The notes below the pieces were generated by a model that did not search any database, was not told where the DNA came from, and saw nothing but the letters and a program-made list of their open reading frames with translations. DNA of 64,000 bases from an uncultured Actinomycetes bacterium (GTDB lineage Bacteria > Actinomycetota > Acidimicrobiia > Acidimicrobiales > Microtrichaceae), in the NCBI GenBank assembly GCA_903925745.1, contig CAIYGQ010000218.1, forward strand, positions 12,274 through 76,273. Direction: 5' to 3'. Positions 17,256 to 51,927 of the stretch are shown here, piece after piece. The translations under genes and the position numbers were made by a program. How positions within the stretch are numbered: the stretch's first letter is position 1; the number at the start of each line of letters is the position of its first letter.

Positions 17256-17338
17256 GGCTTCTGGGCAACCACTAGGGTCCGGGCTCGGGATTCGAAGCCG
17301 TGACTCGGGGCACCACTCGAGCCGGCGGGAGAGGAGGC

Positions 17339-21388: not shown

Positions 21389-21389
21389 G

Positions 21390-30866: not shown

Positions 30867-31979
30867 TCAGGGGAGTTCGTTCTCGGCCTCCGGGATGAGT
30901 CGTCGGATGCTCGATCGCATGGTCGCCGACGCCGGTCGCATGTGCGCCAGGTCGTCCCGCAGCGCCTTGAGGTCGCGGACGAGCGCCACCACCTTGGGTT
31001 TCGAGTTGCGGAAGTAGCGTCCGAGTTGGGCAGAGATCTCCGACAGCTCCCACTCCCCGGGGGATCCTGTGAGGTGCCGGCTGACGTGCTGCTGGCCCGA
31101 AACCCAGTCGACCAGTCCGCGGCGCGTGGCCTCGATCTCGGGCCAGGTGGACCGCAGCGATGCCAACCACAGACGGCGTGTCACCTCGCTGTTATCGGCG
31201 TACCGGAGGTGGCCGACGAACCTGCCGGAGTCCCACCAGTCGCCGGTGCCGCGGACCCATTCGTCCTCGAGCGCGCTCGAGGATCTGGTCTGCAGGACTC
31301 CGATGGGAGTGACCCGATCGGGTTGGCGCCCCTCGGGTTGCAGATGGTCGTCGATCGTCTCCGGGTCGCCGTCCCACTGGTCGACCAGACGGTCGGCCAG
31401 GTCCAGGTCGAACCCGGCGAGCTCGGTGATCGCCGCCGACATCCACTCGTCGACATGTTCACTCTGCTGGCGGAGTCGGCCGTGCACGTACGCAGCGGTG
31501 TCGGGGCGTTCGAAGACCCGTCGGAACGGCACCACGGCGAGCCGGGGGCCACCGGGGTGCAAGCCGGGTGGCGCCCCGATCACGTACCGGGGGCCGTTGC
31601 GGCGATCCGAGTAGCGGGCGACCTGTTCGACGACCTCGAGCAGGGCCGGCGTGGGCTGGTCGTGGTCGCAGATGAGCTCCACGAGGCACCCGTCCGCCAT
31701 GGCCGACAGGTCCTGGACCGACGGCGCTACGACGGAGGAGTCGATCTCCGGGCCGAGGATCGACCGCACCTCGTGGTGGTCGGTGGCCGTCCACAGGCCG
31801 GGCGAGTCGATCCGGATGGTCGGGAGTCTGGCTGCCGAGCTCACGGCCTCGACCACCTCGGTGCGCGGTCGACCTGGTGGCACCTCCACGACGACCGAGG
31901 AACCCTGGCGGACCTTGGCGGTGATCCCGGCCGTCCACCGGCGCGGACCCGGGAGCTGCCAGGCCCAGGGCTCACTCAT
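30867..31979 (-). CDS. HEPN-domain protein (R-x4-H) with unassigned N-terminal domain
   Basis: C-terminal [13 protein letters not shown], the same LRxDLAH signature as the 17339-19354 protein. Start overlaps the stop of the giant ATPase by 8 nt. Confidence 0.55.
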
Positions 31980-34900
31980 CGGTCGGTCGGTGGGTATCGG
32001 GGATGGCCGAGACGAGTGCTCGCGTGAAGTCGTCGATCGAGCAGTGCTCGTCGACCAGCGTGGCGAAGCCCTGACGGAGGGACTCGGCGATCTTTGCGAC
32101 CTCGGTCGGGTCGGCTTCGGAGTCCTCCAGCGAGATGCTGACCCAGTCGTCGAACTCGTCGGACTCCACCGAGTCGAGGGTCACCAGCGCCTCGAGCCCC
32201 CGGTGTTCGAGCGAACCCGGTCGGATCCCCAGGTCCCCGACCGTCCAGCGCGCATCCGCAATCGACTGCTGCACGTGAGCCGTCGAGGCCGCCGGGTTCT
32301 GCGAGGACGCGAACGCAGTGATCCACTCGACCACCGGCTCGTGCCACCCGCCCGTGACCTCGATGATCTCCTCGACGCGGTGACGGGCCGGGTGGTCGTC
32401 GAGCCACAACGCCAGGTCCGGTGCACTCCAGCGCTGGAGCCAGAGCACCTGGGTCTGGTCGTCGTGGGGGAGCGTCCCGAACGCCTGAACGTCGGCCAGG
32501 ATGATCGACCGAGCCCGCTTCTCGGAGAGGAGTCGGAGCGCCGGAGCCGGGTCGTCCCCCGGGCGGAGCCGGCACCAGTTCACGGCGTCGTCGCTCGGAT
32601 CGACCTGATCGGGATGGCGGACCTCGACGAGCCGTTGGCCGAGCGGTTCGACCAGGATCTCCAAGGTTGACGGAATCCGCTCGATCCCCGAAGCGACGCC
32701 ACCCACGACGACGTTGCAGCGCTGCTCGAGCAGGTTCCGGGCCGACGAGCGCGTGATCGGTGATCGCGTGTCGTCCGGGAGGAGGAGTCGGACCGCAGCG
32801 GGGTCGTGCTGCGGTTCGGAATCGAACTCGACCGGGTTGGTATAACGGTCGGCCACTTCGTCGTACGTGCCGAGGGTGTCGAGGATGTTGAGGGTCCGGA
32901 GGCCGAATCCGCCGGAGGGCGAGCGGCGCAGGATGCCCAGACCGACCATCTCCTCCAGCAGGCCTGCCACCTCGTCGAACCCGGATGTGGCGAAGTACTG
33001 CGGCCACGTCTGTCGGATGTCGGTTGCGATCTCGAGGGGAGTGACCTCGGCGCTGGCTCCCTTGTGTCCCGGGCTCCTCAGCGCGTCGTGGGTACGGAGC
33101 GCGAACAGGTAGGCGAGCACCCGGTACCGCTTGTCCAGACTGAGGGTCCACTCGAAGCGTTGGCGGATCTCGCTCCGGACCTCGATGTCGGCGAGCACCC
33201 GGTTGACCGCAGCGGTGTTGATCACGATCGGAGGGGTGCCCGCCTGTCGGGGAACGCTCTTCATGTGCTCGGCCAGGCTCGAGCCGAGCAGCTGGAGGAT
33301 GGAGGCCTGGTAGTTGCCGAACGCCGCGAGTCGGTAGGGGAGCTCGGGTGACTCCCATCGGAATCCGAGGCAGCTGAAGAGCCGGTCGATCAGCTCGTAG
33401 GCGTTGAGGGGGGACAGCGCCGCGACCCGCACGGGCCGCTGCGCCAGGTGGGCCAGCGGTTGCTTGGCGTCGCGCTCGAACCGCTGCACCTGGTGCAGAC
33501 CTGCGAGCACACACTTGAACCGGCGCTTCGTCTCCTGCATCAGACCGCGGATCCGCTGGGTCTGGGGGTACTCCGACGCCCGGTCGTTGTCGAGGAAGCG
33601 GTCACACTCGTCGAGCAGCAGGTAGATGTTCTGGCCCGGGTGGTCGTCGAGCCACGTGAGCACGGCTGCCTTGAAGTCGTCGAACTGATCGGACTTCTTG
33701 GGACTCGGGCTCGGCGTGGTGACCCCGTGTCTCGCCAGCTCGCCCAGCGCGACCTTCCACACCGTCGGTCCGCCGCCGACCTCTCCCGCCTGTGCGTAGT
33801 TCAGGTCGATCATCACCGCCACGTGACCCTGGTCGTTCGCTCGGCGCTGGACCTTGCGCAGCAACGCCGACTTGCCGAGCTGGCGCCCGCCGTAGACGAA
33901 CGACGGCCCTTGGGGGCTGAGCAGGGACGTGAGTTCCTCCTGCCGTCCGAAGAACACCTCCTTGGGGAGTTCCCCCTGGGCGTTCGGGCGGAAGGGGTCG
34001 AGGCTGTTGAACGGGAGCACCGCCCGCATCAACTGCTCCCACCTCCGCTTCTCGTCGGGCGCGGTGGCACACACCCATGCGACCGTCGCCGGGTCGATGA
34101 CCGCCACCGGCCGGGGGGACTCAGCGGTTCGACGACGTTCGGCGAGGTCGACCCGGTCGTGGGCGCCGATCACGGTCGGTGTGATCACGAGGACGGGCTC
34201 ACTCGAGCGCTCGTCGTTGATCGAGTTGTCCAGGTCCCGCGTCGAGGTGAACGTGTGGACGATCACGACCCGGTAGTTCCCGCCCGCCTCGGATCCGAAG
34301 TCGGGGACCAGCGACCTACCCTCGGGGGTTGCGCTGCGCACCTGGAACCAGAGGCGTCCGCGACCGGACCACGGGCCGGTCGGCAGCGCCGTCACGGTTC
34401 CGAGCGTCAGGCCGAGGTGCGGGAGCAGTGCCTCGAGCGCTGCGATTCCCTCTGCGTCGGGACGTTGCGCGGCGCCGGCCGAGAGCAGTCCGGCGGAGGC
34501 GTCGAACAGGGTCCAGCCGTCGAGCAGGTCGCTGGAGGTCTTCCGCCACGACGGTTCGATCCACGGCAGGTCCCCGAAGGCGTTCTCGAGCTGCGTCTCG
34601 ATCTGCGCGGCGTCAGGGTCGATTCGCTCGAGCAGCTCGTTGAAATGCTCGACTCCGAGGTGGTCGGCGGTGGGTGCCGGGATGGTTCCGTCGTTGTCCT
34701 GCGCGATGAGGTTGAGTTCCACGGCCGCGCCGTAGTCACCGCGCTCGATGGCTGCATCGACCTGGCGGCGGGCATCCTCATCGAGCTGTCCCCCCAGATC
34801 GTGGATCGGGTTGCTGACCCGAGCAGCCTCGAGCTCGCCGAGCAGCCGCCGGGCCTGCTCGACGGCTTCGACGGCACGGCGGAGGTCGGACTGCTCGGCG

Positions 34901-37659
34901 AGTTCCACCGCCTCGGCCAGGAGGAACTCGACCTCGGTCGTGCTGGTGGGGTCCAGTGCCAGACCGCTCGAGACGACGGCGAGGTGGTCGGCCGTCTCCT
35001 GGCGGTCCCGATCGAGCCGGTCGCGCACGCGGCGCACCTGATCGTCGAGGTCCTCCCGCCGCTCCTCGCCGATCAGGCCGACTTCGATCATCAGTTCGGC
35101 GGAGATCACCTCGAGCGCCTCGACCCGCTCCCGGAACAGCTCCTCGCTGGCAACCTCGCCGAGGTACCGCTCGATGTCGTCCGCTCCCGGCCGTCTGACG
35201 ATTGCGCCGTCGGCATCGAATGCGACTCCGGGCGCACGCAGCAGATGGAGAACCGGGTCGCTCTCGGTCGCCGAGGGCGGTCTGCCGACCATGCGGATCA
35301 GGTGGCCGGCGGCAGATCCCCAGCGGGCAGCAGAGCCGGCCTGGTGGTCGAGTTCCTCGGCGGCCTGCTCCCGGAGTTCCGAGACGCGGGCCAGCAATCT
35401 CGAGTAGTGGTCGTCGTTCGCCGACTTGGCATCGACCAGTTCGGTTGCCCGGAGGACCTGCAGCGCAAGGTCACGCGCCTCCTCGATCTTCCCGGTCAGA
35501 CGCGCCCGCGCCTTCGCCTCGATTCGGCGGAGGCCGTGCTCGTCGATCTCGTCGCAGGTGTCGTCGATGAGGTTGCCGATCTGCTTCCGGTCGGCTAGCG
35601 AGTCGGCGATGTCCTTCGCTCGGCGGTACGAGTCCCGGTCACGCTTCTCGGCGTGTTCGAGCGCGAGATCCACCATCTCGCAGACGGTTCCGGTGTTCAC
35701 GAGGCGTTGCCAGACCAGCGTTGCGAGCTGGTACACGAGTTTCTGGTGGGGAGCCTGCTCGCGGAAGATCCGGAGTCGCTCCGCCGATTCCCCCAGCAGA
35801 CTGGCTGCGGCATCGCCTGTTCCCGCCGTGTCGATCAGCACCGGGACTCCGTAGTTCGCGGCCTCCCGCAACGCGACGAGCAGATCGTTCGTCCTCGGCG
35901 AGCCCACTGACCGGGCCACGGCCCAGTCCTCCATGGCCGGGACCCGACTCAGGGGCGAGCGGGCCATGTGGAGTGCGGTTGCGGCCAGCGCCAGCGGCAC
36001 CGCGAAGTCGGGCGTCTCCACCAGATCGACCTGGCGAGCGAGCCGCTCAGCCGCAGTTCGGGCGAGGTCGGCGGTCCCGCCGTGACGCGGATCCTGATCG
36101 CGGAGATTCGTAGCGCTCGCCGCGAACTCGAGCACCGCCTGCTCGGTCGAGTGGAGCGGGGCGAAGGTTGCGGCCAGCATCAGTTCGTCCCGCTCTACGA
36201 GCTCGTCGAGCAACTCGTTCACAGGGCGGACGTCGACATGTGCCGACGGCGAACCGGCATTCGTGTCGGACACACGTTCGGGTTCGGGTTCGGGTTCGGG
36301 TTCGGGTTCGGGTTCGGGTTCTGGTTCGGGTTCTGGTTCGGGTTCTGGTTCTGGTTCTGGTTCGGGTTCTGGTTCGGGTTCTGGTTCGGGTTCTGGTTCC
36401 AGCATTGTGGGGTCGACGGGGTGCTTGTCGGACCCGGCTGGGTTATCGAGCAGGAGCTGACCCTCCGCTGCGGCGTACACGATCCAGCGGAGTTCGACCG
36501 GGAGCTGCGCCGCAATAGTCACCATCGGGTTGTCGGGGTCGACGGCCTCCAGCGCGGCGCTGATGGTGAGGAGGTGCGATGCGAGCACCCTGTCTGATTC
36601 CTCGACCGGCGGCCATCCGTCACAGAGCCGCTCAGCCGTCGACCTGATCGTTGCGAGGTCCTGTTCGAAGTCGGTGACGGTGGATCGAACGCCGGCCAGC
36701 CGACGCAACGCCTCGAGGTCGGGATCGACTACGGCGGCCGATGCCGCCGCGGCCTCGGCGAGGTCATCCACGGTCGTCTCCTCCGTCGCGTCGAGTCCGA
36801 GGTCCGATGCGAGCGAGTTGAACGAATCACGCAGCAGCTTCAGGTCCAGGATCAGCTGCTCCTCGGGAGCGCGGCCGGCGGCAAGCGCTTCGCTGGCCGC
36901 CTCGACGCTCGCTGCGGCGATCTCGATCCGATCCTGGAGTTGGGCGAGTCGATCTTCGAGGGAGAGGCCGTCAGACGCTCCAGTCCCGGTCGGCGTGCTG
37001 CTCATGAAATCATCGAAGTCACCGCGATCGAGCAGCTGTTTGATCTCAGGGGCTGCGGGCAACCCACGGAGCACGCATGCACGCAGGCCGGCACGAAGAA
37101 GTTCATCGCTCATGCGTTCCCGTGCTGGTGGGAGCGCCTTCACGAGATCGTCGAGCGTCGGGCTGGCGGCTCGGTCACCCAGGAGCGGCACCATGAGTTC
37201 GAGCACGGGTGCGATGACGAGATCGATGGCGAGGTCCTGTTCCCTGAGCTCGTTGCAGCGATCTCTCAGCCGGCCGGCGGATACTGCGGACAGCTTCTGC
37301 AGGGGTTGCCCGAGCAGGTGTCGAGTGATCCCCCGAAGAGTCGGCTCGCTGAACTGAGCCGCCCCCAACCGAACATCTGCGTTGGAGAGCGATGCGAACT
37401 CCAGCCAGAACTGGTCCACGTCCTCGGCTCGGCCGAGCTCCGCTGGCCCTTCGGGATCCTGCGTCTGCTCGCCGTCGTCCATCGCGTCCGTCCCCTCCCG
37501 AGCGGTGCTCTCGATCAGATCCTCGCTGCGGATCAAGATCAATTCAACGGGATGCACCCAGCCCGCGTCCAGACCGCGCCCCACGAATTCAGTACGAGCG
37601 GTTCCGATGTCACCGTCCGGACCGGAACGAGGCGAGGGCGCCGGCGGCTGTGCCGTCAC
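31972..37659 (-). CDS. Giant (about 1,895 aa) STAND/ORC-Cdc6-like AAA ATPase with helical N-terminal region
   Basis: [26 protein letters not shown] (Walker A) and [12 protein letters not shown] (Walker B). Also VLAGLHQV and winged-helix-like [14 protein letters not shown]. About 1,100 aa of helical N-terminus contain (EP)20. The start could instead be GTG 37584, since ATG 37659 overlaps the E1 gene by 50 nt. Confidence 0.7.
36280..36399 (-). repeat. 20 x 6-bp microsatellite (gggttc/tggttc) encoding (EP)20 in the giant ATPase
   Basis: Counted directly on the sequence. In frame, it reads GAACC[C/A] on the minus strand. Confidence 0.9.
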
Positions 37660-38533
37660 CGAGCGGAGCCACCGGTGCGACTCGGTGCTCTCCGCAGACG
37701 GGACACTCGGGGGAGCCGAGCACCCGCAGCCACACCGACTGGGGTGCGAACTGCCCCGGGGTCTCGCCGAAGTTGCCGGGGAACCACTCCCACCCGGCGC
37801 TCGTGGAGATGATGCACATGGAGTGCCGGGCGATCGCGGTCAGGGTGTGCGTCCCGACCGGCGACGACGGGCCACCCAGCAGGCCGATCGACAACTTGGC
37901 CGCCACGCTGACGACAGTGAGGATGTCCGCACCGAGCGCCGTCTCGGCCGCCAGCCGTCCGGTGCCGTAGTCCTGCTCGCCCCGCAGGTGCGCACCGTCG
38001 GCCCCGTGCGAGGTCGCCCGCTGCCCGGTCGCGCAGGCCCAGCACGGTGTCGCGCCCGGGATGTTGAGCACGATCTCGCCGGCGGCAGCGCCGCGGTAGA
38101 GGGCGCAGTGCACGACCGGTCGACCGATCGCAGTGGCCCGGTGGTCGAGCGCGCCCTGCGCGACCGGGTCGTCGAGCGCAGCGACCACCAGGTCGACCTG
38201 CTGGAGCAGGTCGGCGAGCTGGAGCTCGAGCAGGGCGTCCAGGTCGCAGTGGTGGCCCGTGACGCGGGTGCCCGGGTCGATGCGGAGCAGGTGGTCGGCC
38301 AGAGCGTCGACCTTGGGCCGCCCGCAGTCCTCGCCGGTGTAGGTGCTGCGCGACAGGTTGGGGGCCTCGACCACGTCGGGGTCGACCAGGGTGAACGACC
38401 CGACGCCGTGCCGGGCGAGCACGTCGCTCATCGTCGATCCGACGCTGCCGCACCCGACGACGAGTACGTGACGGTCGCTGAGTGATGGGACGAGCCCGGT
38501 GATCCGAGCGGTGCGGCTGTCGGGTGCGTTCAC
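37610..38533 (-). CDS. E1-like adenylating enzyme (ThiF/MoeB/UBA family)
   Basis: [37 protein letters not shown] nucleotide-binding fold. Two CxxC pairs (PCWAC; CPVCG). GTG 38533 gives a GTGA overlap with the JAB stop. Confidence 0.8.
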
Positions 38534-39474
38534 GATGCCTCCTGGTCGGATGGTGTCGGATCCGGACGGGTCGGTTCGGTCTCGGTCGGATCGGTCTCGG
38601 TCGGTTCGGCGGCTGCCGGCGCCAGGTCGAGCAGTTCGAGGGCCGCGACGAGCGCACCGACTCCGGTCGCGGTTTTCGTCGACGCCGGAACCGGCAGCGG
38701 GAACGGAGTGAGACCGTCCCCGTGATCCAGTGCCACGAGCGGGGCGGCGAGCGGGAAGTCGTGGCTGAGCAGCACCCAGACCTGCGGAGCGCCGGACCCG
38801 GGGTCGAAGCAGCACCCGAGCAGGTCCACCCCGTTGACCGAGACGGGCTCTGCGCCGACCCGCCGCCACCCGAGTCGGGCGGTGATGCGTCGGCAGGTCC
38901 GCTCCACGGGGATCACCCGGACCGCAGCAGGTCGGGAGAGCCGCAGCGTGCCGGCGCCATCCAAGCGCCCGACGAAGCACGACATCCGACCGTGCGGCAG
39001 CCGGACCTCGTGGTCCCCGAGCGGCCGGTCGTCCACGATCTGGGTGACCACCGGCATGCACACCCAACCCAGGTGCGGGTTCCGCTCGAGCAGGTGGGTG
39101 GTGACCTGGAGGTCAGGTCCGCTCAACCGGTTGAGGCCGTTGGGGTGTGAGTGCACGACGCCGACCAACCGCAGGTCGAGCGACGACTCGAGCTCGACGA
39201 CACGATTGACGAGTTGCTCCGATGGCACGTACGACACCTCGGTGGTCGCAGCGTGTCGATCCCACTCGAAGTGGGTGACCGAACGCGCGTTGACTGGCCG
39301 CAACAGGGCACCACCCTGCTCCGGGTCCGGTGCGGCCAGCCGCCGGTCGATCCGCCGCAGGGTCAGGTCGGTGAAGGTCGGCACGATCGGTGTGACCGAC
39401 AGGTCCGTCGGCTGCCGGCGGGCGCGACGGGGACGGCCGGTGCTGGGGGTGCGTCGGGAGCTCACGTCGGTCAT
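38530..39474 (-). CDS. JAB/JAMM metallo-isopeptidase
   Basis: Complete JAMM motif: VVELESS..GVVHSHPNGLNRLSGPD (E, HxH, S-x2-D). ATG 39474 gives an ATGA overlap with the upstream stop. Thr/Pro/Glu-rich tail. Confidence 0.8.
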   Translation of the reverse strand: MTDVSSRRTPSTGRPRRARRQPTDLSVTPIVPTFTDLTLRRIDRRLAAPDPEQGGALLRPVNARSVTHFEWDRHAATTEVSYVPSEQLVNRVVELESSLDLRLVGVVHSHPNGLNRLSGPDLQVTTHLLERNPHLGWVCMPVVTQIVDDRPLGDHEVRLPHGRMSCFVGRLDGAGTLRLSRPAAVRVIPVERTCRRITARLGWRRVGAEPVSVNGVDLLGCCFDPGSGAPQVWVLLSHDFPLAAPLVALDHGDGLTPFPLPVPASTKTATGVGALVAALELLDLAPAAAEPTETDPTETEPTRPDPTPSDQEAS

Positions 39475-40379
39475 GCGCTGAAGGGGGCCGGCAGATCGCG
39501 TCGGATGAACTCGATGTAGATGCACCACTTGGCCAGGGCGGCGTGGACGTCCCGGATCGACGGGTGCCCTCGGAACCCGGGTCGGAGGCACACCACCGTG
39601 GCGCCGTTGAGCAACTGGAGGTGGTGCCGGTGACCGGCCAAGTGGTCCAGGTTGGGCGCCAGGCAGTAGGCGAACCACTCGTTCCTGCGCGACGGCTCGC
39701 GGCGGATCAGGAACACGTACTCGGCCTCGGTGAACACGTCCGGGCGGAGCTCCATGACCCACCCACGGCTCTCGTCGTGCCAGTACCAGCTGCAGAGGTT
39801 GTCCGGATCGATCGCTCGGATCGCCCGGATGTCGTCGACCGGAGGGGCGGCGAACGTCTCCCGGGGGAGGGACGTGGTCGCCTCGACGTGTCGGCCCGAC
39901 TCGCCGAACCTGATCTTCCCGTCGGGCGACGTCGTCACCTCCCGTGCGGACGCCCGCCCTTGCTCGGCGTCGCGGATCGCCTGGATCATGGCAGCCATCT
40001 GCTCGGGGGTCTGGCTTGCGAACCGCTCGGTGGGCAGCGACGACACCGGGTGGTCCTGGTGCTCGGCTCCCACGGCCGATCCGGCGTTCCCAGCGGGACC
40101 CGACCCACGGTTGGCCCAGACGGGAGGTGTGGTGATGCGGCCACGGTCGACCACGGGCGCGTCGGTGAGCGGCACCAGACCGTCGCCAGCCGACTCCGAC
40201 GTTCTGGTCTCGTGGGCACCCAACGGCGCGACACCCGTCCGCGGCTGGTCGTCCGGCGACGTCCACACCTCCACGCCGTTCCGGTCGAGCGAGGGGACGA
40301 GGTCGATCACGGGCAGCGGCGGTGTGCGCTCGGCTGCCGTGTCGGTGGGGGGAGTGGGTCGGGTCGGTCGGGTGCTCAT
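39471..40379 (-). CDS. Putative prokaryotic E2 (UBC-like) protein with disordered N-terminal half
   Basis: The C-terminal ~130 aa contain GHRHHLQLLNGATVVCLRPG, a His then Cys spacing like prokaryotic E2 families as I recall them. Sits at the E2 position of E2-JAB-E1 cassettes. Confidence 0.5.
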   Translation of the reverse strand: MSTRPTRPTPPTDTAAERTPPLPVIDLVPSLDRNGVEVWTSPDDQPRTGVAPLGAHETRTSESAGDGLVPLTDAPVVDRGRITTPPVWANRGSGPAGNAGSAVGAEHQDHPVSSLPTERFASQTPEQMAAMIQAIRDAEQGRASAREVTTSPDGKIRFGESGRHVEATTSLPRETFAAPPVDDIRAIRAIDPDNLCSWYWHDESRGWVMELRPDVFTEAEYVFLIRREPSRRNEWFAYCLAPNLDHLAGHRHHLQLLNGATVVCLRPGFRGHPSIRDVHAALAKWCIYIEFIRRDLPAPFSA

Positions 40380-40434
40380 GGGTGCTCCAGTGGGTTGACG
40401 GTGGGTTGTGACATCAGGGGTGCGGGTGTGGTGG

Positions 40435-41187
40435 TCATCGCCAGGCCTCGATCAGGAACCACACGCTCAGTTCGCCCGTCCGGGCACGGCCGCTCGCAGA
40501 CACCACGCCCAGCAGTGCTGGATCGAGTCCGGCGGTGGCGGCGCCGAGCGCTGCCGCTGCGGCAACGGGCGCCAGCCCTGCAGCCACCACCGGTGCGACG
40601 ACCCCGCCGAGGGACACCCGCGCCGCTGATGTGGCGATCCGAAGGGCGCGTCGGGTGCGCTCCGAGGGAGGTGTCTCCGGGATGAGTGCTGCGAGTTCGG
40701 TCGGGTCGATGGTCTGGACGTCGGCCTTCAACGACCCGTCGGGGAGTTCGTGGGCGACGAACAGGCGGTCGAACTCGACACCGAGCTCGACCAGCCGCTC
40801 GAGCTTCGCCACGACGTGGTCCGGCATCACGAACTGCTGCTGGCGCAGTTGCGGGTCGGTCTCGGCAGCGGTGACCACCCACTCGGTGCGCTTCCCGTCC
40901 GCACGCAACGGAGCGCGACCGGCCAGTCCGGGCTTGGCCGTCGGTCGAGCGGTGCTGCGGTCGGGCGACACATGGGCCGCGACCGGACCGCCGACACGGA
41001 GTCCGATCGGTCCGTCGGGAACGGGGATCACGCCGACGGGGGTCACGAGTCCCCCGGAGCGGGCCATGACGGCGGTCGCCCGCCGCTCCAGGGCCGAGCC
41101 CGTGGCCCCGACCGACGTCGAGTGCGACACGACAGGAGTGGTCCGCTTCGAGGGCGGTACTGCCGGGAGGGTGGAGTCGGTTCCCAC
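40435..41187 (-). CDS. Hypothetical protein with Ala/Gly-rich hydrophobic C-terminal segment (first or second gene of the conjugation cassette)
   Basis: 250-aa ORF with C-terminal LGGVVAPVVAAGLAPVAAAAALGAATAGLDPALLGVV..WFLIEAWR. No C-terminal Gly-Gly and no obvious beta-grasp signature by eye. Confidence 0.4.
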   Translation of the reverse strand: MGTDSTLPAVPPSKRTTPVVSHSTSVGATGSALERRATAVMARSGGLVTPVGVIPVPDGPIGLRVGGPVAAHVSPDRSTARPTAKPGLAGRAPLRADGKRTEWVVTAAETDPQLRQQQFVMPDHVVAKLERLVELGVEFDRLFVAHELPDGSLKADVQTIDPTELAALIPETPPSERTRRALRIATSAARVSLGGVVAPVVAAGLAPVAAAAALGAATAGLDPALLGVVSASGRARTGELSVWFLIEAWR

Positions 41188-41190
41188 TCG

Positions 41191-41784
41191 TCAGTCCCCA
41201 CTCGCTCCGAACAGCAGCATGAGGCCAACCGCCCCGACTGCGAGACCGATCAGGACCATCACCGCCAGCGCGAGCAGGCCAGCGGCCACGCTGAGCGCCA
41301 GGGGTACCGCCAGGACTGCGGCAGTGACGTCGAGCAGCCCGATGGCGACGATCACCCGGAACGGGGCCTGCTGGAAACCCCGGGTCACCGCAGCGCATCC
41401 GACCAGTCCGGCCGCAGCCGCCAGTGCGGCCCACGGTCCCCAGCGGTCGACTCCCCAGAACGTCGCGCAGGTGCGGAGGAACTCTGCGACGGGGACGGGG
41501 AGCGCGAGCACCCACTGCATCGCCGGGCGGTGGGCAGCGGCGACGACGACGGCGAGTCCGAGTGCGAGCCAGCTCATCCAGGAGAGGCTCCCGAGTTCGA
41601 TGGGAACGTCGTCGGATCGCACGGAGCGGTCGAGGATGTCGCGAAGCCCGTGACGGTGTGCCGGCGCTGCGGCAGACTCGACGAACTTCTGGGGAGCGCG
41701 GCGCGGGACGGGGGTGCTGGTTGGCAGTCCCAGGTCGCGGCGTACTCGGTCGATCGGGTGCACGTGGTCTCCTGCTGTCGTCAC
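41191..41784 (-). CDS. Multi-pass membrane protein
   Basis: Hydrophobic segments WMSWLALGLAVVVAAA, PWAALAAAAGLVGCAAV and VIVAIGLLDVTAAVLAVPLALSVAAGLLALAVMVLIGLAVGAVGLMLLF. Ends in GASGD. 3-nt gap to the next gene. Confidence 0.5.
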   Translation of the reverse strand: MTTAGDHVHPIDRVRRDLGLPTSTPVPRRAPQKFVESAAAPAHRHGLRDILDRSVRSDDVPIELGSLSWMSWLALGLAVVVAAAHRPAMQWVLALPVPVAEFLRTCATFWGVDRWGPWAALAAAAGLVGCAAVTRGFQQAPFRVIVAIGLLDVTAAVLAVPLALSVAAGLLALAVMVLIGLAVGAVGLMLLFGASGD

Positions 41785-41954
41785 TCGGTTCGTCCCGGGC
41801 TGACTGACGGACGGGACAGCCCGTTCGGTTCTCCCAGGGTCACCAGGCTCCGAGTCGACGGATGTGACAACCGGTCCAGCTCACGCCGGCTCGGAAGGAC
41901 CGGCTGAGATCCGGTAGCGTCGCAGCGTCAGGGTGTGAGGGAGAGGACTGGACC

Positions 41955-43340
41955 GTGGAGCCGTTGGGCAGCCCAGCAGCAGAGGTATCGGGCGCAGATG
42001 ACCCGTCGTCGAGGCACGTGTGGGCGCTCCTCGGGAACAGCGTGGAGCCGGTCGTCTACGGGCTGGTCGCCCTGTCCCCGGCGTCGGTGACGTTCGTGGT
42101 GACGAAGGATTCGAAACCACTGGTCCGGCAGGTGCTGCAGCGGGTGCGGAGGTCCGGGGTTGCACTCGACGGCAACGCCGTGGAGTCGGTCGTCGTGGAG
42201 CCGGACGATCCGGCTTCCATCCGACGCGAGCTCGAGGAGCACTTCGCCTACGAACACGAGCGCCGGGGTGACCTGCTGTTCGGTGGCGGAACGACCGTGA
42301 TGAACGTGGTCGCCGCCTCGGTCTGGTCGGTGCAGCACAGTGACTCGGGGAGCAGGAGTGATCCGGAGTACCGCCAGTGGTACCTGCCGGCCCGCGGGTC
42401 GCAACTGCTGAGCCCGAGCGGCGACCGTATCGACCTGAGGGCTGCGTTCCCCGGGATTGACCAACTCGTCAAGTCCGCTGCGCCAGAACAGTCCAGATGG
42501 GAACCGGAGGCGGACGAGTGGCTCGGACGGGCCACACCTCCCGGTGTCGGTCCAGCTCAGCCCTGGTCCGCGGATTCCCACGTCGGTGCAGTGACCGAGC
42601 TGGTGGTCGCGCTGCTCAGTCGGGTCGAGGACAAATCCTGGAAGAACAACGATTGGCTCAAGGGGCGGCTGGGGACCGCCTTCGACGAGAGCGACTGGAC
42701 TCCGGATCCTCAGCAGGTGTCCAAGGACCGACTCGCAGGCTGGCGCCGGGGGAAGGCCCTCGAACTGGTGACCTTCGCGCTGGTGGCACGTCGGGTCCAC
42801 CAGCTGACCAGCGCGCCCCGTGCCCGATCCGGATCCGTTGCGCCCGAGGTGCTCCGGAACCTGTCCGTCAATCGACTCAAGAAGGGGAGGAAGCCGGCGA
42901 CGGTCACGGAGCTCGATGTGGTCGTGCGGAGCGGTCCTCGCTTCACGCTCTTCTCGTGCGGGGTCGAGGGGGGAGTCCGTCAGGCTCCGCTCGTGAAGAA
43001 GCTCGCCGAGGCCGAGCGTCGCTCCAAGCAGTTCGGTGGCTCCGAGGCGAGGTCGGTGCTCGTCTGGTGGCGTTCGCCCGACAGAGGACGCCCGGCTCGC
43101 AACAACAAACCCGCTCAACGGGTCGGATGGAACATACCGAAGGACATGAGTTCGGCAGCATCTGAATCCCGCAACATGATGGACAATGCGGGCATCAACG
43201 CTCTCGGCAACCACGTCGCTGTTGCGCTCGGCGAGTTCTTTGCGAGGCGGGACAAGGAGAGCATTCGCGAGACCGTGGAGGATCCGGGAAGAGTCCCCAA
43301 ACGTGTCCGAGAGATCATCGAGGGGAGCGTCTTCCCGTGA
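41955..43340 (+). CDS. CARF + restriction-endonuclease-fold protein (Card1/Can2-like)
   Basis: N-terminal LLGNSVEPVVYGLVALSPASVTFVVT and GGGTTVMN CARF loop. C-terminal ALELV..ELDVVVRSGPRFTLFSCG..QFGGSEARSVLV resembles the Card1/DUF1887 nuclease half. Confidence 0.6.
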   Translation: MEPLGSPAAEVSGADDPSSRHVWALLGNSVEPVVYGLVALSPASVTFVVTKDSKPLVRQVLQRVRRSGVALDGNAVESVVVEPDDPASIRRELEEHFAYEHERRGDLLFGGGTTVMNVVAASVWSVQHSDSGSRSDPEYRQWYLPARGSQLLSPSGDRIDLRAAFPGIDQLVKSAAPEQSRWEPEADEWLGRATPPGVGPAQPWSADSHVGAVTELVVALLSRVEDKSWKNNDWLKGRLGTAFDESDWTPDPQQVSKDRLAGWRRGKALELVTFALVARRVHQLTSAPRARSGSVAPEVLRNLSVNRLKKGRKPATVTELDVVVRSGPRFTLFSCGVEGGVRQAPLVKKLAEAERRSKQFGGSEARSVLVWWRSPDRGRPARNNKPAQRVGWNIPKDMSSAASESRNMMDNAGINALGNHVAVALGEFFARRDKESIRETVEDPGRVPKRVREIIEGSVFP

Positions 43341-45466
43341 GTCACAGGTTGCTGCACGTCCTGGGGGCCGGTGACCTGGGTGTCGGTCCGGTCGAGTACC
43401 CCACCACCCTGCAGGACCTCGAGGAGCAGCTGGCCACGGGTGATCGGCCCGGGGTGCTGGTCGAACTGGGCCGCACGCGCTCGGAGGTCGAACACCGTGC
43501 CGGTCCACCCCTGATCCGAGTGCTCCGCGAGCTCGACCACACCGAGGTGCTGCTGGTCGCCACCAACCAGGATCATCCCGGCGACACCATCGGTCACGCC
43601 CGGATCTTGGAGGGCCTCACCGTCGACGAGTGGACGCAACTCGTCGGCCGTCCGATCACCGTCACGATCGTGGAGTGCCGCGCGTTCTCGCTCGGCGAGT
43701 TCGTCGAGCGTGTCTCGGGAGCCGTGGCTTCCCTGGACGGGGAGTCGTCGCTGGATCTGGTGCTCTCGGGTGCGGTCCAGATGGTCGTGTGGACCTTCCT
43801 GGGTGCGGTGGCGGGTTCGCAACTGCCCATGCTCCTCGACCCGCACGGTCAGCAACTGCAGCGGGTGACCCTGGACGTCGACGACGGCCTGGTCCCCCTG
43901 CTCGCCCGGCTGCGGCAGTTCCGCGCCATTGCGCAGCTGGACCCCGCCGAGTGGCCGTCCGGTGCGACTCAGGTCGATCTGGAACTGGCCGAGGACGCCG
44001 TTGCGCTTGTCGATCCTGTGCCGGGTGACCTGGACGAGCAGGTCCGCCGTCTCGCCCGGTCCATGTACGCACGACTCGACCGGGGCGACCACTCGGGCAT
44101 CTCCCTGATCCGGCCGGTGCTCCAGGCCGCCTATGCGCTCCGTCACGGAATCGTGTCGAATCCGGCCAACCCTCCCGTCCGTCTGCAGACCGACGCCATG
44201 ACCGATCAGCTCTTCGGCCGGCGGCGGCTCGGGCGTCAGGAGCGCATGGAACGTGCTGCGCTCGAGCCACTGCTCGACTGGGCCGACAGGAGCGCATCGG
44301 TGCTGTCGGATTTCCTCCCGGAGGAGCTCAGATCCCGGGCGCACTGGGTATCGGACCGACTCTCGGTCGACCGGATCCACCGCTTCGTGCCGTTCCCACG
44401 CCAGTCGGATCCCGTGTTCGGACGGCTCGGATTCCCCGGGTGGCCCGCTGTTCGTTCGGGGACACCAGAGTTCGTGGACCTCCCCGAAGGCATCGACGAG
44501 GACATGCCGGCCGCTGACGAGCTGTGGTTCGGCGACGACGAGCAGGCCTGGTCGTCGGTCCCGTACGCACTCGTGCTGATGGCGGTGGGCGAGCGTGACT
44601 ACGCGCCGATGCACGAGGCGATCCTGCGGGCGTTGTCCTACCCGGACGTGGTGATCTTCCCGTCAGCGGTGACGCAGGCCACTCTGGATCCGGCGCACCG
44701 ACAGCACATCGGTGCGCTGCTCGATCCCGGCGACGTCGTCGCCAACCTGACCAAGGTCACCAACGGGCTGCTGAGTCGGAGACCGCAGCCCAGTGCCGCT
44801 GATCGGGTCGTGGTGGCTGTGGGACCGGGGACCCTGGCGATGAACTTCGCGCTGATCGTCGGTGGTCTGGACTACGCCCAGCGCAACGGTCTGCCCTTCC
44901 ACGTCGCCTCACTCCAACGGGTCGGTCCCGGCGGAGCAGGCGGTCTCGAGAGCCAGTTCGTCGTGGACCGCGACCGGGCTGCGGCCCGGCTCGTCAGCGA
45001 CGACCGGTTGGCCGGAGTGATCGTGGGACTCGTGCGACGGCTCCGGTTCGACCTGGCGCTCGAGGTGGTGCGGTCACGGGGGTCGATCGATCTGGAACGC
45101 CGCGTGGCGGCGAGGATCGAGGACCTGCGGGACCGGGTCTTCGGGGGAGACCACACGGTCGCCAACCTGGCGGCGCGTCTGGTCGTCCTGGAGTCGACAG
45201 CGGTGCACGATCCGTGGTGGTCCGTGTTGGCTGCGTGCGAGTTGGTCCAGCGCGCGCTCGACAACGATCGACGTGACCAGCGGACGTTCCGGGACTCGTC
45301 CCTGTGGCGCTTCGGGAACCTGGGACCGTTCGGGAGCGATCCGCACGCTGATCCGACGAATGTCGGGGAGGGCACCGCAGCGGAGGTGATCGTCCGCTAC
45401 CGGCGGGACGCAGACCTGCCGGCGGATCGCACGCTGTTGGACGAGGTCGCCGGCTTCTCCGTGTGA
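43337..45466 (+). CDS. Protein with two Rossmann/CARF-like units, effector domain unassigned
   Basis: LLHVLGAG..VLLVATNQD..LDLVLSGAVQM, and a second unit YALVLMAVGERD..VVVAVGPGTLAMN. GTGA overlaps with both neighbours. Confidence 0.45.
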   Translation: MSHRLLHVLGAGDLGVGPVEYPTTLQDLEEQLATGDRPGVLVELGRTRSEVEHRAGPPLIRVLRELDHTEVLLVATNQDHPGDTIGHARILEGLTVDEWTQLVGRPITVTIVECRAFSLGEFVERVSGAVASLDGESSLDLVLSGAVQMVVWTFLGAVAGSQLPMLLDPHGQQLQRVTLDVDDGLVPLLARLRQFRAIAQLDPAEWPSGATQVDLELAEDAVALVDPVPGDLDEQVRRLARSMYARLDRGDHSGISLIRPVLQAAYALRHGIVSNPANPPVRLQTDAMTDQLFGRRRLGRQERMERAALEPLLDWADRSASVLSDFLPEELRSRAHWVSDRLSVDRIHRFVPFPRQSDPVFGRLGFPGWPAVRSGTPEFVDLPEGIDEDMPAADELWFGDDEQAWSSVPYALVLMAVGERDYAPMHEAILRALSYPDVVIFPSAVTQATLDPAHRQHIGALLDPGDVVANLTKVTNGLLSRRPQPSAADRVVVAVGPGTLAMNFALIVGGLDYAQRNGLPFHVASLQRVGPGGAGGLESQFVVDRDRAAARLVSDDRLAGVIVGLVRRLRFDLALEVVRSRGSIDLERRVAARIEDLRDRVFGGDHTVANLAARLVVLESTAVHDPWWSVLAACELVQRALDNDRRDQRTFRDSSLWRFGNLGPFGSDPHADPTNVGEGTAAEVIVRYRRDADLPADRTLLDEVAGFSV

Positions 45467-47967: not shown

Positions 47968-48829
47968 ACCCAAGTCCGTATCGGTGGTGATCAACGCGTA
48001 CGTGATCTCTCGTTCACTCAGTGAATCACGCCGTGTCAGTTTCAGTCCGTATCGGTATTTCAGGGGCCCCTGAACGAGACCGAAAGGCTGAACATGGGAA
48101 CCAAGAGTTTCAGTCCGTATCGGTATTTCAGGGGCCCCTGAACCCGCCATAAGGCCTATCGTTGGCGACGGTAGTTTCAGTCCGTATCGGTATTTCAGGG
48201 GCCCCTGAACGGAGAGAGCCCAGCTCGACTTGTGCAGGCAGTTTCAGTCCGTATCGGTATTTCAGGGGCCCCTGAACAAGCCGGTGTCGGATGAGGTTCG
48301 CAAGAAGAGTTTCAGTCCGTATCGGTATTTCAGGGGCCCCTGAACCTGAAAGGCAAAAAATGGAGACACTGGAGATCCAGTTTCAGTCCGTATCGGTATT
48401 TCAGGGGCCCCTGAACACAGGCACGGTTCCCTCGCCGTAAACGAGATGTTTCAGTCCGTATCGGTATTTCAGGGGCCCCTGAACCAAGGGCCCAACTAAG
48501 GAGCACCCCATGAGCACGTTTCAGTCCGTATCGGTATTTCAGGGGCCCCTGAACGAACGGACAGATCCCTCGTGGATCACCCTTCCTGTTTCAGTCCGTA
48601 TCGGTATTTCAGGGGCCCCTGAACGTTCAGAGCACAGAGGAACGTAGACCCCTATAGTTTCAGTCCGTATCGGTATTTCAGGGGCCCCTGAACAGATCCT
48701 CTGAAGGGTAGAGCGCTGCTCCCCGTTTCAGTCCGTATCGGTATTTCAGGGGCCCCTGAACCAGCGAATACCTGGTGGGGACCGGCATCTTCGTTTCAGT
48801 CCGTATCGGTATTTCAGGGGCCCCTGAAC
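47968..48829 (-). CRISPR. CRISPR array 1: 12 identical 37-nt repeats plus one degenerate terminal repeat
   Basis: Plus-strand repeat gtttcagtccgtatcggtatttcaggggcccctgaac. Starts at 48039, 48107, 48174, 48241, 48309, 48380, 48448, 48518, 48588, 48657, 48725 and 48793. Degenerate copy at 47968-48004. Spacers are 30-34 nt. Orientation is minus: the leader lies on the right, the degenerate repeat on the left, and the reverse-complement repeat ends in ..ACTGAAAC. Confidence 0.97.
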
Positions 48830-49012
48830 AGCACCCCCTCGGATCCCTGTCCTGGCGGGCCGGAACTGGCCTCTCGCGCCAACCCCCCTCGGACCGGTCC
48901 TGACGGCGAGCACCCTAGCACTGTGGAAAACCCCGAGCCACCCCGGCAGCACTGCGATCGCGCCGCTTGCGCCAACCCCTGTGGACAACCCGGGGTCCGG
49001 GAGGTTGGCGCG
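48830..49012 (-). promoter_or_regulatory. CRISPR leader, copy 1 (183 bp, near-identical to 58577-58759)
   Basis: The sequence flanking the last intact repeat is conserved between the two arrays up to ..ggtccgggaggttggcgcg, then diverges. Confidence 0.8.
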
Positions 49013-49284
49013 AAACGTGGAATCGGTTGACCGGAGAGCGGCATTTGACCTGATCGAGTTCCCCGGATCGAGCTCGAAACTCCCGGATTGCGTCCGCATC
49101 GCCCGATTGCCACTGTCCGGTCGACCTGCTGGTCGGGCCGGGTTCGCGCGGTCGAGGCCCGGCCGGTTCGCACGCCCCGAGCCTACAGAGATCGCGAGTT
49201 CCGCTGACCCGACCCGACAGCTCGCGCCGGACTGTCGGCACCCGGATCCGCCCGGCCGGGCGAATCCGTCCGTCAGGCGGGGGC

Positions 49285-51840: not shown

Positions 51841-51927
51841 GTGACGTCGACGCTCGGTCGCCTCAGCCGGGGGTGACCCACGGCCGGCCCGACGCCTACG
51901 ATTCGGGATGGGAGTGAGGAGACGACA

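Follow-up and report, generated by a model that had tools for sequence, protein, structure and literature searches.

A set of genes for ubiquitin-style tagging, encoding an E2-like protein, a JAB peptidase and an E1 enzyme, lies within the type III-D CRISPR locus of the 64,000-nt stretch of actinomycete DNA analysed here (the window), and this placement raises the question of whether conjugation serves CRISPR signalling or whether the two systems are only neighbours. The set is real, and it forms part of a conserved five-gene module comprising a membrane protein, a 250-aa protein, and the E2-like, JAB and E1 proteins, whose enzymes have intact catalytic motifs and whose five genes recur together in different lineages. 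This module is rare and self-contained, and it is also found elsewhere without CRISPR genes. The reading that we favour, tentatively and with somewhat less than even confidence, is that the cassette is one copy of this module, brought to the locus by the stacking of mobile defence or mobile-element cargo and not dedicated to Cas10 signalling.

The last gene of the module (positions 37,610-38,533, minus strand) encodes a 307-aa E1-like adenylating enzyme of the ThiF fold (Pfam ThiF, 1.1e-32), and the GCGSVGS Rossmann motif and two CxxC pairs of the original prediction were recovered. Adenylation motifs GCGSVGS, NLSRS, GRPKV and DD are intact, four Zn-type cysteines form the pairs CWAC and CPVC, and Cys240 is invariant (alignment of four module homologs, 54-65% identity). 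Best scores for this enzyme are those with Cap2-type (CBASS) E1-E2 models, up to 6.5e-31 in PADLOC, and its top NCBIfam matches are ThiF and MoeB models, all NCBIfam matches falling below the family cut-offs; the match to the NCBIfam cap2_3 model, at 1e-22, is far below the cut-off of that model. The preceding gene (38,530-39,474, minus strand) specifies a 314-aa JAB/JAMM metallopeptidase with the complete JAMM motif that had been proposed, and residues E52, H108xH110, S118 and D121 are invariant in eight relatives. It matches Pfam Prok-JAB at 26.5 bits (cut-off 25), and the family profile matches the MPN/Mov34 structure 2kcq at 5e-5. The peptidase occupies residues from about 40 to 135, and is followed by a C-terminal domain of ~150 residues with an invariant D-[FY]-P-x3-P motif and by an acidic, Pro-rich tail. 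We conjecture that this C-terminal domain has a UEV/RWD-like fold; profile comparison with the E2-like family gave no match.

The third gene (39,471-40,379, minus strand) encodes the 302-aa E2-like protein, and the predicted HH..NG..VCL segment is present as GHRHHLQLLNGATVVCL, with H250, H253 and C264 at least 90% conserved among 89 family members. Cys264, the candidate catalytic residue, is encoded by the codon at 39,590-39,588. Residues 1-120 are mostly disordered and precede two P-x-E-R-F-A motifs, a UBC-like domain at about residues 176-300, and a conserved tail, PFS-x, at the extreme C-terminus. Profile searches, which confirmed the ThiF and Prok-JAB assignments, returned no Pfam, NCBIfam or PADLOC family for the 302-aa protein, Prok-E2 and Cap2 models included, and no family match for any of the 89 members. 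An AF2 model of residues 120-302, built from an 88-sequence alignment, has pLDDT 92.7 and pTM 0.77, and its best Foldseek match in the PDB is the CBASS E2 8yjy_B (probability 0.89, E 0.15), with no match at or below 1e-3. Other E2, RWD and FANCL entries are matched with similarly weak statistics, and the full-length model has a structural match to UFC1. The model therefore lies nearest to E2 enzymes, and the C-terminal domain of the 302-aa protein is predicted to adopt an E2-like fold, on Foldseek statistics that are weak.

Two further genes lie upstream, as had been predicted. Module gene 1 (41,191-41,784, minus strand) encodes a 197-aa membrane protein with three to four hydrophobic segments by hydropathy scan, a cytoplasmic N-terminus carrying a conserved R-x-L-G-L-P motif, and a very hydrophobic stretch over the last ~55 residues; Pfam, PADLOC and NCBIfam searches gave no family match. 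Its homologs in L001, L003, L008 and L045, and more weakly in L044 (E 0.019), always lie beside other module genes, and in L012 the motif reappears at the N-terminus of a 206-aa protein encoded 3' of the JAB-E1 gene. Module gene 2 (40,435-41,187, minus strand) encodes a 250-aa membrane-anchored protein, in which an alignment of eight homologs and a hydropathy scan delineate an N-terminal soluble domain with an invariant FD..L..HE motif, a single hydrophobic segment rich in Ala, and a C-terminal tail conserved as DPAL.GV...G....WFLI..W. Searches of Pfam, NCBIfam, PADLOC and PDB sequences gave no match for this protein, whose homologs occur in L001, L003, L007/8, L044 and L045. The predicted chaining of the E2-like, JAB and E1 genes by start-stop overlaps is borne out by ATGA at 39,474-39,471 and GTGA at 38,533-38,530. 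Moreover, a 20-codon micro-ORF read from the sequence, MTTTPAPLMSQPTVNPLEHP (40,376-40,438, minus strand), bridges the 250-aa and E2-like genes with an ATGA overlap at each end, and is probably a translational-coupling relay. An 11-codon ORF with an ATGA overlap takes the equivalent position in L008, and in L001 the E2-like gene itself extends in frame through this stretch, from a GTG. On the gene map, the divergent intergenic region between the cassette and the CARF-nuclease gene (41,785-41,954) is likely to contain the promoter of the minus-strand operon; no sigma-70 consensus is seen there, a search that is uninformative at 69% G+C.

No ubiquitin-like protein is encoded, in agreement with the original prediction: no credible ORF in the 37.5-42.1 kb interval ends in Gly, and the five ORFs that do so are all out-of-frame or antisense shadows. 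If the cassette acts as its components suggest, the E1 would adenylate the C-terminal carboxylate of a partner protein, for which the PFS-x tail of the E2-like protein and the 250-aa protein are candidates. The activated group might then pass as a thioester via a cysteine of the E1 to Cys264 in the E2-like protein, from which it would be transferred to an amine of a target at the membrane, and the JAB peptidase would either mature the C-terminus or reverse the linkage. We regard as very improbable a scheme without conjugation, in which the E1 adenylates a small peptide or a sulfur carrier (MccB-type RiPP or ThiF/MoeB/CysO chemistry) and the JAB protein is a processing peptidase. The MvdD-type ATP-grasp gene whose end overlaps that of the membrane gene (L001, L008), the 64-aa ORF that precedes it in L001, the micro-ORFs before the E2-like gene, and the ThiF and MoeB models at the head of the NCBIfam matches are all consistent with such chemistry. 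The ATP-grasp gene, however, is absent from the window, the operon of L003, L044 and L045, the micro-ORF sequences are not conserved, and no ThiS, MoaD, CysO, rhodanese, CysM or peptide-clamp domain is present, whereas an E2-like partner with the conserved Cys accompanies every copy of the module.

Is this conjugation set tied to CRISPR? As predicted, a genuine E1/JAB/E2-like cassette lies inside the CRISPR locus, upstream of and co-directional with the giant ATPase gene, cas10 and the RAMP genes. The type III-D effector block begins with an HD-less Cas10 of 564 aa (29,063-30,757, minus strand; palm motif EGDD; PADLOC Cas10 1.4e-76, Cas10d 7.8e-48; Pfam palm2), continues with Csx10, Csx7, Csx19 and TIGR03986 RAMPs, and ends with Cas6 at 19,312. 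On the other side of the cassette lie genes for CARF-nuclease, CARF-HEPN and CARF-HD effectors, the array and RT-Cas1. This position, the absence of any predicted terminator between 43 kb and 29 kb, and a published precedent of CRISPR-linked E2, ThiF and ThiS genes (UAS-33, PMC10910872) would fit recruitment of the cassette as a type III-D accessory, as originally proposed, with Cas10 or a CARF effector controlled by reversible C-terminal conjugation. The only other CRISPR setting, in the P0002 contig, retains the arrangement with different flanking CARF genes, but it comes from a near-identical lineage (84-90% identity; 84% for the E2-like protein, at least 90% for the E1 and the 250-aa protein). 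Moreover, cas10 is set apart from the cassette by the two genes of an independent module and a further 110 nt, the C-terminus of Cas10 (...GLWGST) has no feature that marks it as an E1 substrate, and family searches found no CARF, SAVED or other nucleotide-sensor domain, and thus no sensor of cyclic oligoadenylate, in any cassette protein.

The wider distribution of the module also argues against this proposal. Outside the window, the E2-like family occurs with JAB and E1 in ~10 independent contexts (L001, L003, L006, L007/L008, L010, L012, L044, L045, L046 and the P0003 contig). All five genes are found together at 30-65% identity in L001, L003 (in permuted order), L007/L008 (Actinobacteria bacterium IMCC26256) and L045; in L044 the 250-aa protein is retained, and JAB is fused to E1 in L012, L044 and L046. 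No cas homologs or CRISPR arrays occur in the searched DNA of these contexts, although many contigs are only 1-10 kb long and cas genes could lie past their ends. Absence of homologs beside cas genes had been named beforehand as an outcome that would refute the proposal, and this is essentially what is observed, only the close relative in P0002 repeating the CRISPR context. Because the module occurs elsewhere without CRISPR genes, a working link to CRISPR is unproven, and we consider control of Cas10 signalling unlikely. Nevertheless, the embedded placement of the cassette, its tight joining to the giant gene and the CARF genes on its other flank are what would be expected of a recruited accessory.

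The cassette is joined tightly to a neighbouring pair of genes. Gene A of this neighbouring module (31,972-37,659, minus strand) lies outside the conserved cassette and encodes a giant P-loop ATPase of 1895 aa, with Walker A (GGRQLGKS) and Walker B (LLLDECD) motifs near residue 1250, an EP repeat at residues 413-461, and weak Pfam matches to AAA_16, ATPase_2 and nSTAND6. Its first start, at 37,659, gives a 50-nt overlap with the E1 gene, and an alternative GTG at 37,587 leaves a 23-nt gap. Gene B (30,867-31,979, minus strand) encodes a 370-aa partner with a C-terminal R-x4-H motif. The predicted order of genes from the E1 to cas10 and the RAMPs thus stands, and the partner, which has no family match, is HEPN-like by its motif only. 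Homologs of the giant ATPase, of 1900-3400 aa, are encoded on 14 plasmids, the Salinibacter pSR118 protein having 27% identity to that of the window (E 4e-77), and a homolog of the partner is encoded immediately 3' of it in three cases (Salinibacter, E 8e-12; Agrobacterium, 2e-6; Thiodictyon, 6e-5), with the R-x4-H motif aligned in Salinibacter and Thiodictyon. The pair recurs on plasmids without the cassette of the window, and no cas genes surround it on the 14 plasmids; it is a second independent module.

It is conceivable, if rather unlikely, that the cassette regulates this pair, priming or restraining an NTPase-plus-RNase abortive-infection module much as Cap2/Cap3 act on CD-NTases, with CRISPR only as the neighbourhood. 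The overlap or abutment of the E1 and giant genes is kept in the related contig, other copies of the module adjoin P-loop NTPases of other kinds, and on Agrobacterium pTiCFBP4996 genes for an MBL-like protein, an E2-E1-JAB fusion and a patatin follow the homologous pair. This E1/E2/JAB set is of the 6A-MBL type, a family unrelated to the window cassette, and its presence there hints at a functional tie to the pair. Against regulation of the pair, 13 of the 14 plasmid contexts have no E1 within 10 kb of the giant ATPase, the giant family is absent from the other module copies examined, and neither the giant protein nor its partner ends in Gly or Ala.

Neighbours of the module differ from one context to another, and some of them point to mobile elements. 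HerA/TrwB-like ATPases occur beside it in L001, L003, L006, L008, L014 and L046, an AAA+ ATPase is the partner gene in L010, and a DnaG-type primase adjoins it in L044. The module might then be cargo of actinobacterial conjugative or integrative elements, with a role in establishment, exclusion or counter-defence, and the window copy a remnant inserted in the CRISPR locus. One family of HerA/TrwB/FtsK-like ATPases adjoins the module in L001, L003, L006, L008 and L046, the last alongside Replic_Relax and an HTH_17 excisionase-type gene in a relaxase-type set, and distant members of the E2-like family are fused to Phage_Mu_F or DnaJ domains. We find this specific origin distinctly unlikely, since the E2-like and JAB proteins have no match in 72,556 plasmids, 50,697 phages or viral contigs, no integrase, relaxase or translocase lies beside the window copy, and this reading leaves room for a defence role. 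Stacking remains our preferred explanation: as the five-gene module and the ATPase pair each recur where cas genes are absent, we interpret the operon most readily as a stack of three mobile modules within a type III-D locus that has many CARF effectors, and recruitment, whether by CRISPR or by the ATPase pair, is a possible, minority reading.

Comparison with known systems places the cassette among bacterial conjugation sets. UAS-33, in which E2 and E1 genes are statistically linked to CRISPR loci (score 34/50; Altae-Tran et al. 2023, PMC10910872), is the only catalogued CRISPR-linked E2/E1 case that we found in the literature, and it softens the earlier statement that no such arrangement was known. 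The gene sets differ, however: UAS-33 has ThiS, Prok-E2 family A, CorA and NYN with no JAB listed, whereas the cassette lacks ThiS and Prok-E2_A and belongs to a family with no CRISPR linkage elsewhere. Bil (BilABCD) and Bub operons (PMC10557695, PMC11601596) likewise have separate genes for E1, E2 and a JAB-type peptidase in defence contexts, but they also specify a Ubl that ends in Gly, in some cases as several copies, and no Ubl, JAB-N, RING-like or multi-ubiquitin components were detected in the cassette. The earlier Bil-like label consequently fits poorly, the E1 and E2-like proteins being closest to Cap2-type models and a CBASS E2, respectively. The vWA-MoxR/FtsH ternary systems (Kaur et al. 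2020, PMC7159879), from multicellular or actinobacterial lineages, share the theme of a JAB/E1/E2 set whose operon also holds large NTPase-driven defence modules, but they have EAD adaptor domains, a RING-type E3 and a Ubl-E2 fusion that were not detected in the cassette. The 6A-MBL systems (Iyer et al. 2006 class 6a; NCBIfam NF058523) likewise combine E2, E1 and JAB chemistry in the absence of a Ubl, the E1 of the window matching cap2_3 (below cut-off, as noted) and such a set adjoining the Agrobacterium giant ATPase homolog, but consist of a single triple-fusion protein and a metallo-beta-lactamase, whereas the cassette has three genes, membrane partners and no MBL. Type II CBASS, with Cap2 (E2-E1) and Cap3 (JAB) (Ledvina et al., Jenson et al. 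2023; PMC10097602), differs in its fused E2-E1, the cassette having separate genes, an E2-like family not recognised by Prok-E2 or Cap2 models, a JAB with an extra C-terminal domain, and two membrane proteins as obligate partners in place of a CD-NTase or nucleotide-activated effector. Like the cassette, it combines E1, E2 and JAB without a ubiquitin-like protein, and an analogous mechanism in the cassette would activate a partner protein at its C-terminus. The cassette thus appears to be a variant, without a dedicated ubiquitin-like protein, of the Cap2/Cap3-type conjugation system.

The five genes of the cassette lie on the minus strand in a window of approximately 69% G+C, and the divergent intergenic region at 41785-41954 is the start point of this gene series. 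They encode a 197-aa membrane protein (41784-41191, -), a 250-aa protein (41187-40435, -), an E2-like protein of 302 aa (40379-39471, -), a JAB protein of 314 aa (39474-38530, -) and an E1 of 307 aa (38533-37610, -). As described in the original prediction, two proteins (41784-40435) precede the enzymes, and the three enzyme genes are chained by an ATGA overlap between the E2-like and JAB genes (39474-39471) and a GTGA overlap between the JAB and E1 genes (38533-38530). The gene for the giant P-loop ATPase (1895 aa, -) then either overlaps the E1 gene by 50 nt (start 37659) or abuts it (start 37587), and is followed on the same strand by the gene for a 370-aa protein with an R-x4-H motif (31979-30867, -; 8-nt overlap with the giant ATPase gene) and, after a 110-nt gap, by an effector block (-) encoding Cas10, a Csx10-like protein, a double Csx7, Csx19, a TIGR03986 RAMP, two further proteins and Cas6. 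This arrangement, with the cas10 and RAMP genes downstream, also agrees with what had been read from the sequence. In addition, a micro-ORF of 20 codons (40376-40438, -) bridges the gap before the E2-like gene through ATGA overlaps. An ORF in this gap starts with M/V-(S/T)-T-(T/A) in three lineages (the window, 40376-40438, -; L008 from Actinobacteria bacterium IMCC26256, 9978-10013; and a third module locus, L001, 4252-4337), with 20 codons in the window, 11 in L008 and an in-frame extension in L001, and possibly serves as a translational relay.

The cassette sits inside a cas locus and is oriented like the effector genes of that locus, with no predicted terminator. Two CRISPR arrays with a 37-nt repeat are present (48038-48831 and 58141-58577), and an RT gene that overlaps the start of cas1 (49054-51233, +) forms an RT-associated adaptation module after the first array, the second being approximately 7 kb further downstream. 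The plus-strand genes diverging from the cassette encode CARF effectors (CARF-PD(D/E)xK, CARF_HEPN_CARF-like and CARF_HD), and further CARF genes are found elsewhere in the locus; hits to CARF or Csx1 models fall at 41955-47493 (+), 51877-53106 (+), 20153-21844 (-) and 17300-19354 (+). Because it is flanked by III-D effector genes, arrays and CARF effectors, the cassette is physically within a type III-D locus set up to signal through cyclic oligoadenylates. Five genes match CARF models (CARF-PD(D/E)xK twice, CARF_HEPN_CARF-like, CARF_HD and Csx1-like) and a sixth (17300-19354, +) has a weak Csx1 hit, which is an unusually large effector set for a single type III-D system. Cas10 itself (29063-30757, -), which despite the many CARF genes is only a putative source of cyclic oligoadenylate, is a short protein of 564 aa with no HD domain and a palm motif of EGDD instead of GGDD. 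Within the gene for the TIGR03986 RAMP, a 15-nt tandem repeat (23705-23794, -) encodes (HEAIK/HEASK) x6 as an insertion in this Cas7-like protein. No paralogy is seen among the large accessory proteins of the window.

For two of the three enzymes, the E1 and the JAB protein, the assignments agree with those proposed. The E1 matches Pfam ThiF (1.1e-32) and has no domain beyond it within its 307 aa, hence no rhodanese domain; its Gly-rich loop and the NLSR, GRPK and DD adenylation motifs are invariant in 5 homologs, and all module homologs keep its four Zn-type cysteines. The best defence-model scores of this protein are to the Cap2-type E1-E2 proteins of CBASS (PADLOC, 6.5e-31), it falls below every curated NCBIfam cut-off, and scanning metagenomes with the E1 alignment returned mostly Cap2-like or generic ThiF loci. 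The JAB protein narrowly exceeds the Pfam cut-off of 25 for Prok-JAB (26.5 bits), and its family profile matches solved MPN/JAMM structures in the PDB (5e-5). Its JAMM motif (E...HxH...S..D) is complete, with E52, the HxH, S118 and D121 all invariant. An additional domain at the C-terminus of the protein contains a D-[FY]-P-x3-P motif, also invariant, and on this motif may resemble UEV/RWD domains; comparison of this domain with the E2-like family using hhalign gave no relationship.

Assignment of the 302-aa protein required more extensive searches. Word-indexed searching of 5.8 billion proteins gave 9 close homologs, and few members were gained when this was repeated with a broad alignment; 98 homologs came from searching 1.84 billion representatives exhaustively with a profile, and the family comprises approximately 100 clusters at 50% identity. 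Residues H250, H253 and C264 are conserved in at least 90% of 89 members, and a distant clade has the motif H-x-Y-x-D-G-x2-C-L, much like the UBC HPN...C signature. Neither the protein nor 89 relatives match any family in Pfam, NCBIfam or PADLOC, including the Prok-E2 families of Pfam, and profile searches of PDB sequences with 9 and 89 family sequences returned chance hits only. AlphaFold modelling of residues 120-302 from an 88-sequence alignment gives a confident structure (pLDDT 92.7, pTM 0.77) consisting of a helix, a four-strand meander, a His/Cys loop and a long helix. Foldseek comparison of this domain model with the PDB places a CBASS E2 (8yjy_B, probability 0.89) and an E2 variant (0.82) at the top, the best E value being 0.15 and none reaching 1e-3, with Rad6, UBE2H, a Leishmania E2, RWD and FANCL among the lower matches, and the full-length model retrieves UFC1. 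In hhalign comparisons the protein falls in the correct register against UbcH5 and a Prok-E2_B-like protein, although the score is not significant. The predicted E2 identity is thus well supported by convergent evidence that stops short of formal proof: the near-invariant His and Cys residues and the model uphold it, whereas a match to a Prok-E2 HMM is absent and the best structural E value is 0.15. Two distant members (P0088 and P0107) are fusions, one to a Phage_Mu_F head-morphogenesis domain and the other to a DnaJ J-domain, which hints that the distant clade may be used by phages or in chaperone-linked settings.

No credible ORF ending in Gly is present within 37.5-42.1 kb, in agreement with the original prediction, in which no ubiquitin-like protein of this kind was evident, and none of the cassette proteins has a beta-grasp family hit in Pfam or NCBIfam. 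A sulfur-carrier or cysteine-synthesis operon (ThiS/CysO with Mec) was considered and ruled out, there being no carrier, CysM or rhodanese. The extreme C-terminus of the E2-like family (PFS-x or FPF[NS]-x; alignment A2; window codons 39471-39482, -) is kept in nearly all 89 members. Conservation to the very C-terminus is unusual for an E2, and this tail is therefore a candidate E1 substrate or docking peptide; the E2-like protein's own tail and the 250-aa protein are our substrate candidates. We infer the chemistry, substrate and biological role of the module along these lines: a partner protein, in place of a ubiquitin-like protein, would have its C-terminus activated by the E1, the activated group would pass to Cys264 of the E2-like protein and from there to a target, and the JAB protein would mature or reverse the linkage, with the two membrane proteins perhaps acting as anchor, target or effector. 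By analogy, the closest chemistry would seem to be that of Cap2/Cap3, and the module could serve in defence or as mobile-element cargo.

The five genes are inherited together. Homologs of the membrane and 250-aa proteins adjoin the three enzymes in L001, L003-5 (where gene order is permuted), L007/L008 and L045, and L044 has a 250-aa homolog with a weakly matching membrane protein (E 0.019); identity of the E2-like protein across these loci ranges from approximately 30% to 63%. Actinobacteria bacterium IMCC26256 (L007/L008) is the sole hit among 185,579 species genomes, and no relatives of the E2-like and JAB proteins were found in the plasmid, phage and viral-contig collections. The enzyme triad is kept in L006, L010 and L046, JAB is fused to E1 in L012, L044 and L046, and L012 combines the E2-like gene and this fusion with a membrane protein having the same N-terminal motif. 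Neither the 250-aa protein nor the membrane protein matches a family in Pfam, NCBIfam or PADLOC, and a PDB sequence profile search with the 250-aa family gave chance hits only. HerA/TrwB-like ATPases of one family adjoin the module in L001, L003, L006, L008 and L046, and L014, a related E2_B-like/JAB/E1 set, also has a HerA-like ATPase; the neighbour in L010 is an AAA+ ATPase, and L046 has Replic_Relax and excisionase-type genes alongside. No HerA/TrwB-like homolog lies next to the window copy, and the giant ATPase belongs to a different P-loop family. In two lineages an MvdD-type ATP-grasp gene shares 4 nt with the beginning of the membrane gene (L001 1816-3092 and L008 7756-8808); the one in L001 is preceded by a 64-aa ORF with a Ser/Thr/Asp-rich tail, possibly a graspetide-like peptide tied to the module. 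Near the module in L001 (9577-9753) and L003 (19101-19376) is a small DnaJ-type zinc-finger protein with CxxCxGxG repeats that ends in GAG[RK]HDHR in both cases. A related segment is fused to the E1 C-terminus in IMCC26256 (L008 12633-12740), and the window has no counterpart.

The placement of the cassette raises the idea that it has been recruited to type III signalling, and conjugation control of Cas10 had indeed been proposed on first reading. In about 10 independent module contexts, however, the DNA examined (several contigs being short) contains no homolog of the window Cas proteins and no CRISPR array. The order of cassette, giant ATPase, 370-aa gene and cas10 is repeated only on the P0002 contig, whose proteins are 84-90% identical to those of the window and therefore represent the same lineage; recurrence with cas10 or type III loci across unrelated lineages was not found. 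Conjugation control of Cas10 thus fails the comparative test named with the original prediction, and recruitment to type III signalling, for which position is the basis, appears distinctly unlikely. Family scans gave no hit to CARF, SAVED or any other sensor of Cas10 signals in the cassette (all five proteins), in the giant ATPase or in the partner of the latter. An apparent CRISPR-like signal in another locus (L023) is an 84-nt coding repeat and was dismissed.

Position is likewise the basis for the idea that the cassette might control the giant ATPase pair. Homologs of the C-terminal 775 residues of the giant ATPase occur on 25 plasmids. Salinibacter ruber pSR118 encodes a 1927-aa homolog (E 4e-77) and, directly after it, a 377-aa protein that is homologous over its full length to the 370-aa protein of the window, R-x4-H motif included (E 8e-12), and the pairing recurs in Thiodictyon and Agrobacterium. 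The giant protein and its R-x4-H partner of approximately 370 aa (window 30867-37659, -; L048, L051 and L052) hence constitute a conserved two-gene module on Salinibacter, Thiodictyon and Agrobacterium plasmids, and look like an uncharacterised NTPase/HEPN defence pair; the 370-aa protein has no family match in Pfam, NCBIfam or PADLOC. Streptomyces and other plasmids also carry the giant homolog, with a 510-aa downstream gene in S. fungicidicus. In the gene of the window, a near-perfect 6-nt tandem repeat (36276-36399, -) gives the giant ATPase a run of approximately 25 Glu-Pro dipeptides, likely a flexible linker and possibly a site of length variation. There are no cas genes in 14 plasmid contexts of the giant ATPase, and an E1 lies within 10 kb in just one of these, on Agrobacterium leguminum pTiCFBP4996 (L052, 5449-17649), where the genes next after the pair encode an MBL-like protein, an E2-E1-JAB triple fusion of the 6A-MBL type and a patatin. 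That the same ATPase family adjoins a different E1/E2/JAB system keeps regulation of the pair by the cassette alive, but the single occurrence among 14 contexts leaves us doubtful of it, and the fact that two unrelated E1/E2/JAB systems adjoin one rare family of ATPases could be a coincidence of defence islands.

The sequence observation is confirmed overall, and its interpretation holds in part. Our preferred reading of the minus-strand "operon" is a series of three modules, each mobile in its own right: the conjugation module first, then the giant ATPase with its partner, and last the genes of the III-D effector block. With its intact motifs, fold support and co-inherited genes, the first of these is a real, uncharacterised conjugation module. 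It is improbable that this lineage has coupled a Cap2/Cap3-like module to an RNA-guided immune locus, such that III-D target recognition, or sensing by the NTPase/HEPN-like pair, would be gated by reversible covalent attachment to an immune protein at the membrane; if true, an E2 family that family libraries do not yet contain would be exerting ubiquitin-like control over CRISPR or NTPase-based immunity. The placement of the module nevertheless makes it possible to ask, in a natural setting, whether CRISPR or large NTPase defences are ever under conjugation control. Should the placement prove mere stacking, the case would warn that a location within a cas operon says little about function.

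Prokaryotic E1/E2/JAB conjugation systems have been on record since the work of Iyer et al. 2006, Ubl sets have been described within NTPase conflict systems (PMC7159879), and a CRISPR-linked set of Prok_E2, ThiF and ThiS has been catalogued as UAS-33 (PMC10910872). In the incomplete literature that could be searched, neither an E1/E2/JAB set associated with type III CRISPR nor the E2-like family with membrane partners was the subject of any paper that we found, and an earlier comparative-genomics description is possible. The cassette resembles class 6 of Iyer et al. 2006 in having an E1 with a ThiF fold and no rhodanese and an adjacent JAB gene, which overlaps that of the E1. UAS-33, in contrast, comprises a family A Prok-E2, ThiF, ThiS, NYN and CorA, of which the window shares ThiF only, the other components having no hits among the scanned genes. 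Conjugation of the E1/E2/JAB type is experimentally established for CBASS (PMC10097602) and Bil, and it is mainly through CBASS Cap2/Cap3 and through Bil and Bub (PMC10557695, PMC11601596) that bacterial ubiquitin-like conjugation in immunity has been shown so far. Type II CBASS operons encode a CD-NTase and a cyclic-nucleotide-activated effector, whereas PADLOC and Pfam detect no CD-NTase in the cassette or the scanned flanking genes; moreover, E2 and E1 are fused in Cap2 and are encoded in the cassette by separate genes with the JAB gene between them. Bil and Bub operons encode a beta-grasp Ubl ending in Gly, unlike the cassette, and the substrate question is for this reason directly testable in the module. 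To these systems the module adds a separate E2-like family that is unnamed in family libraries, together with two obligate membrane partners.
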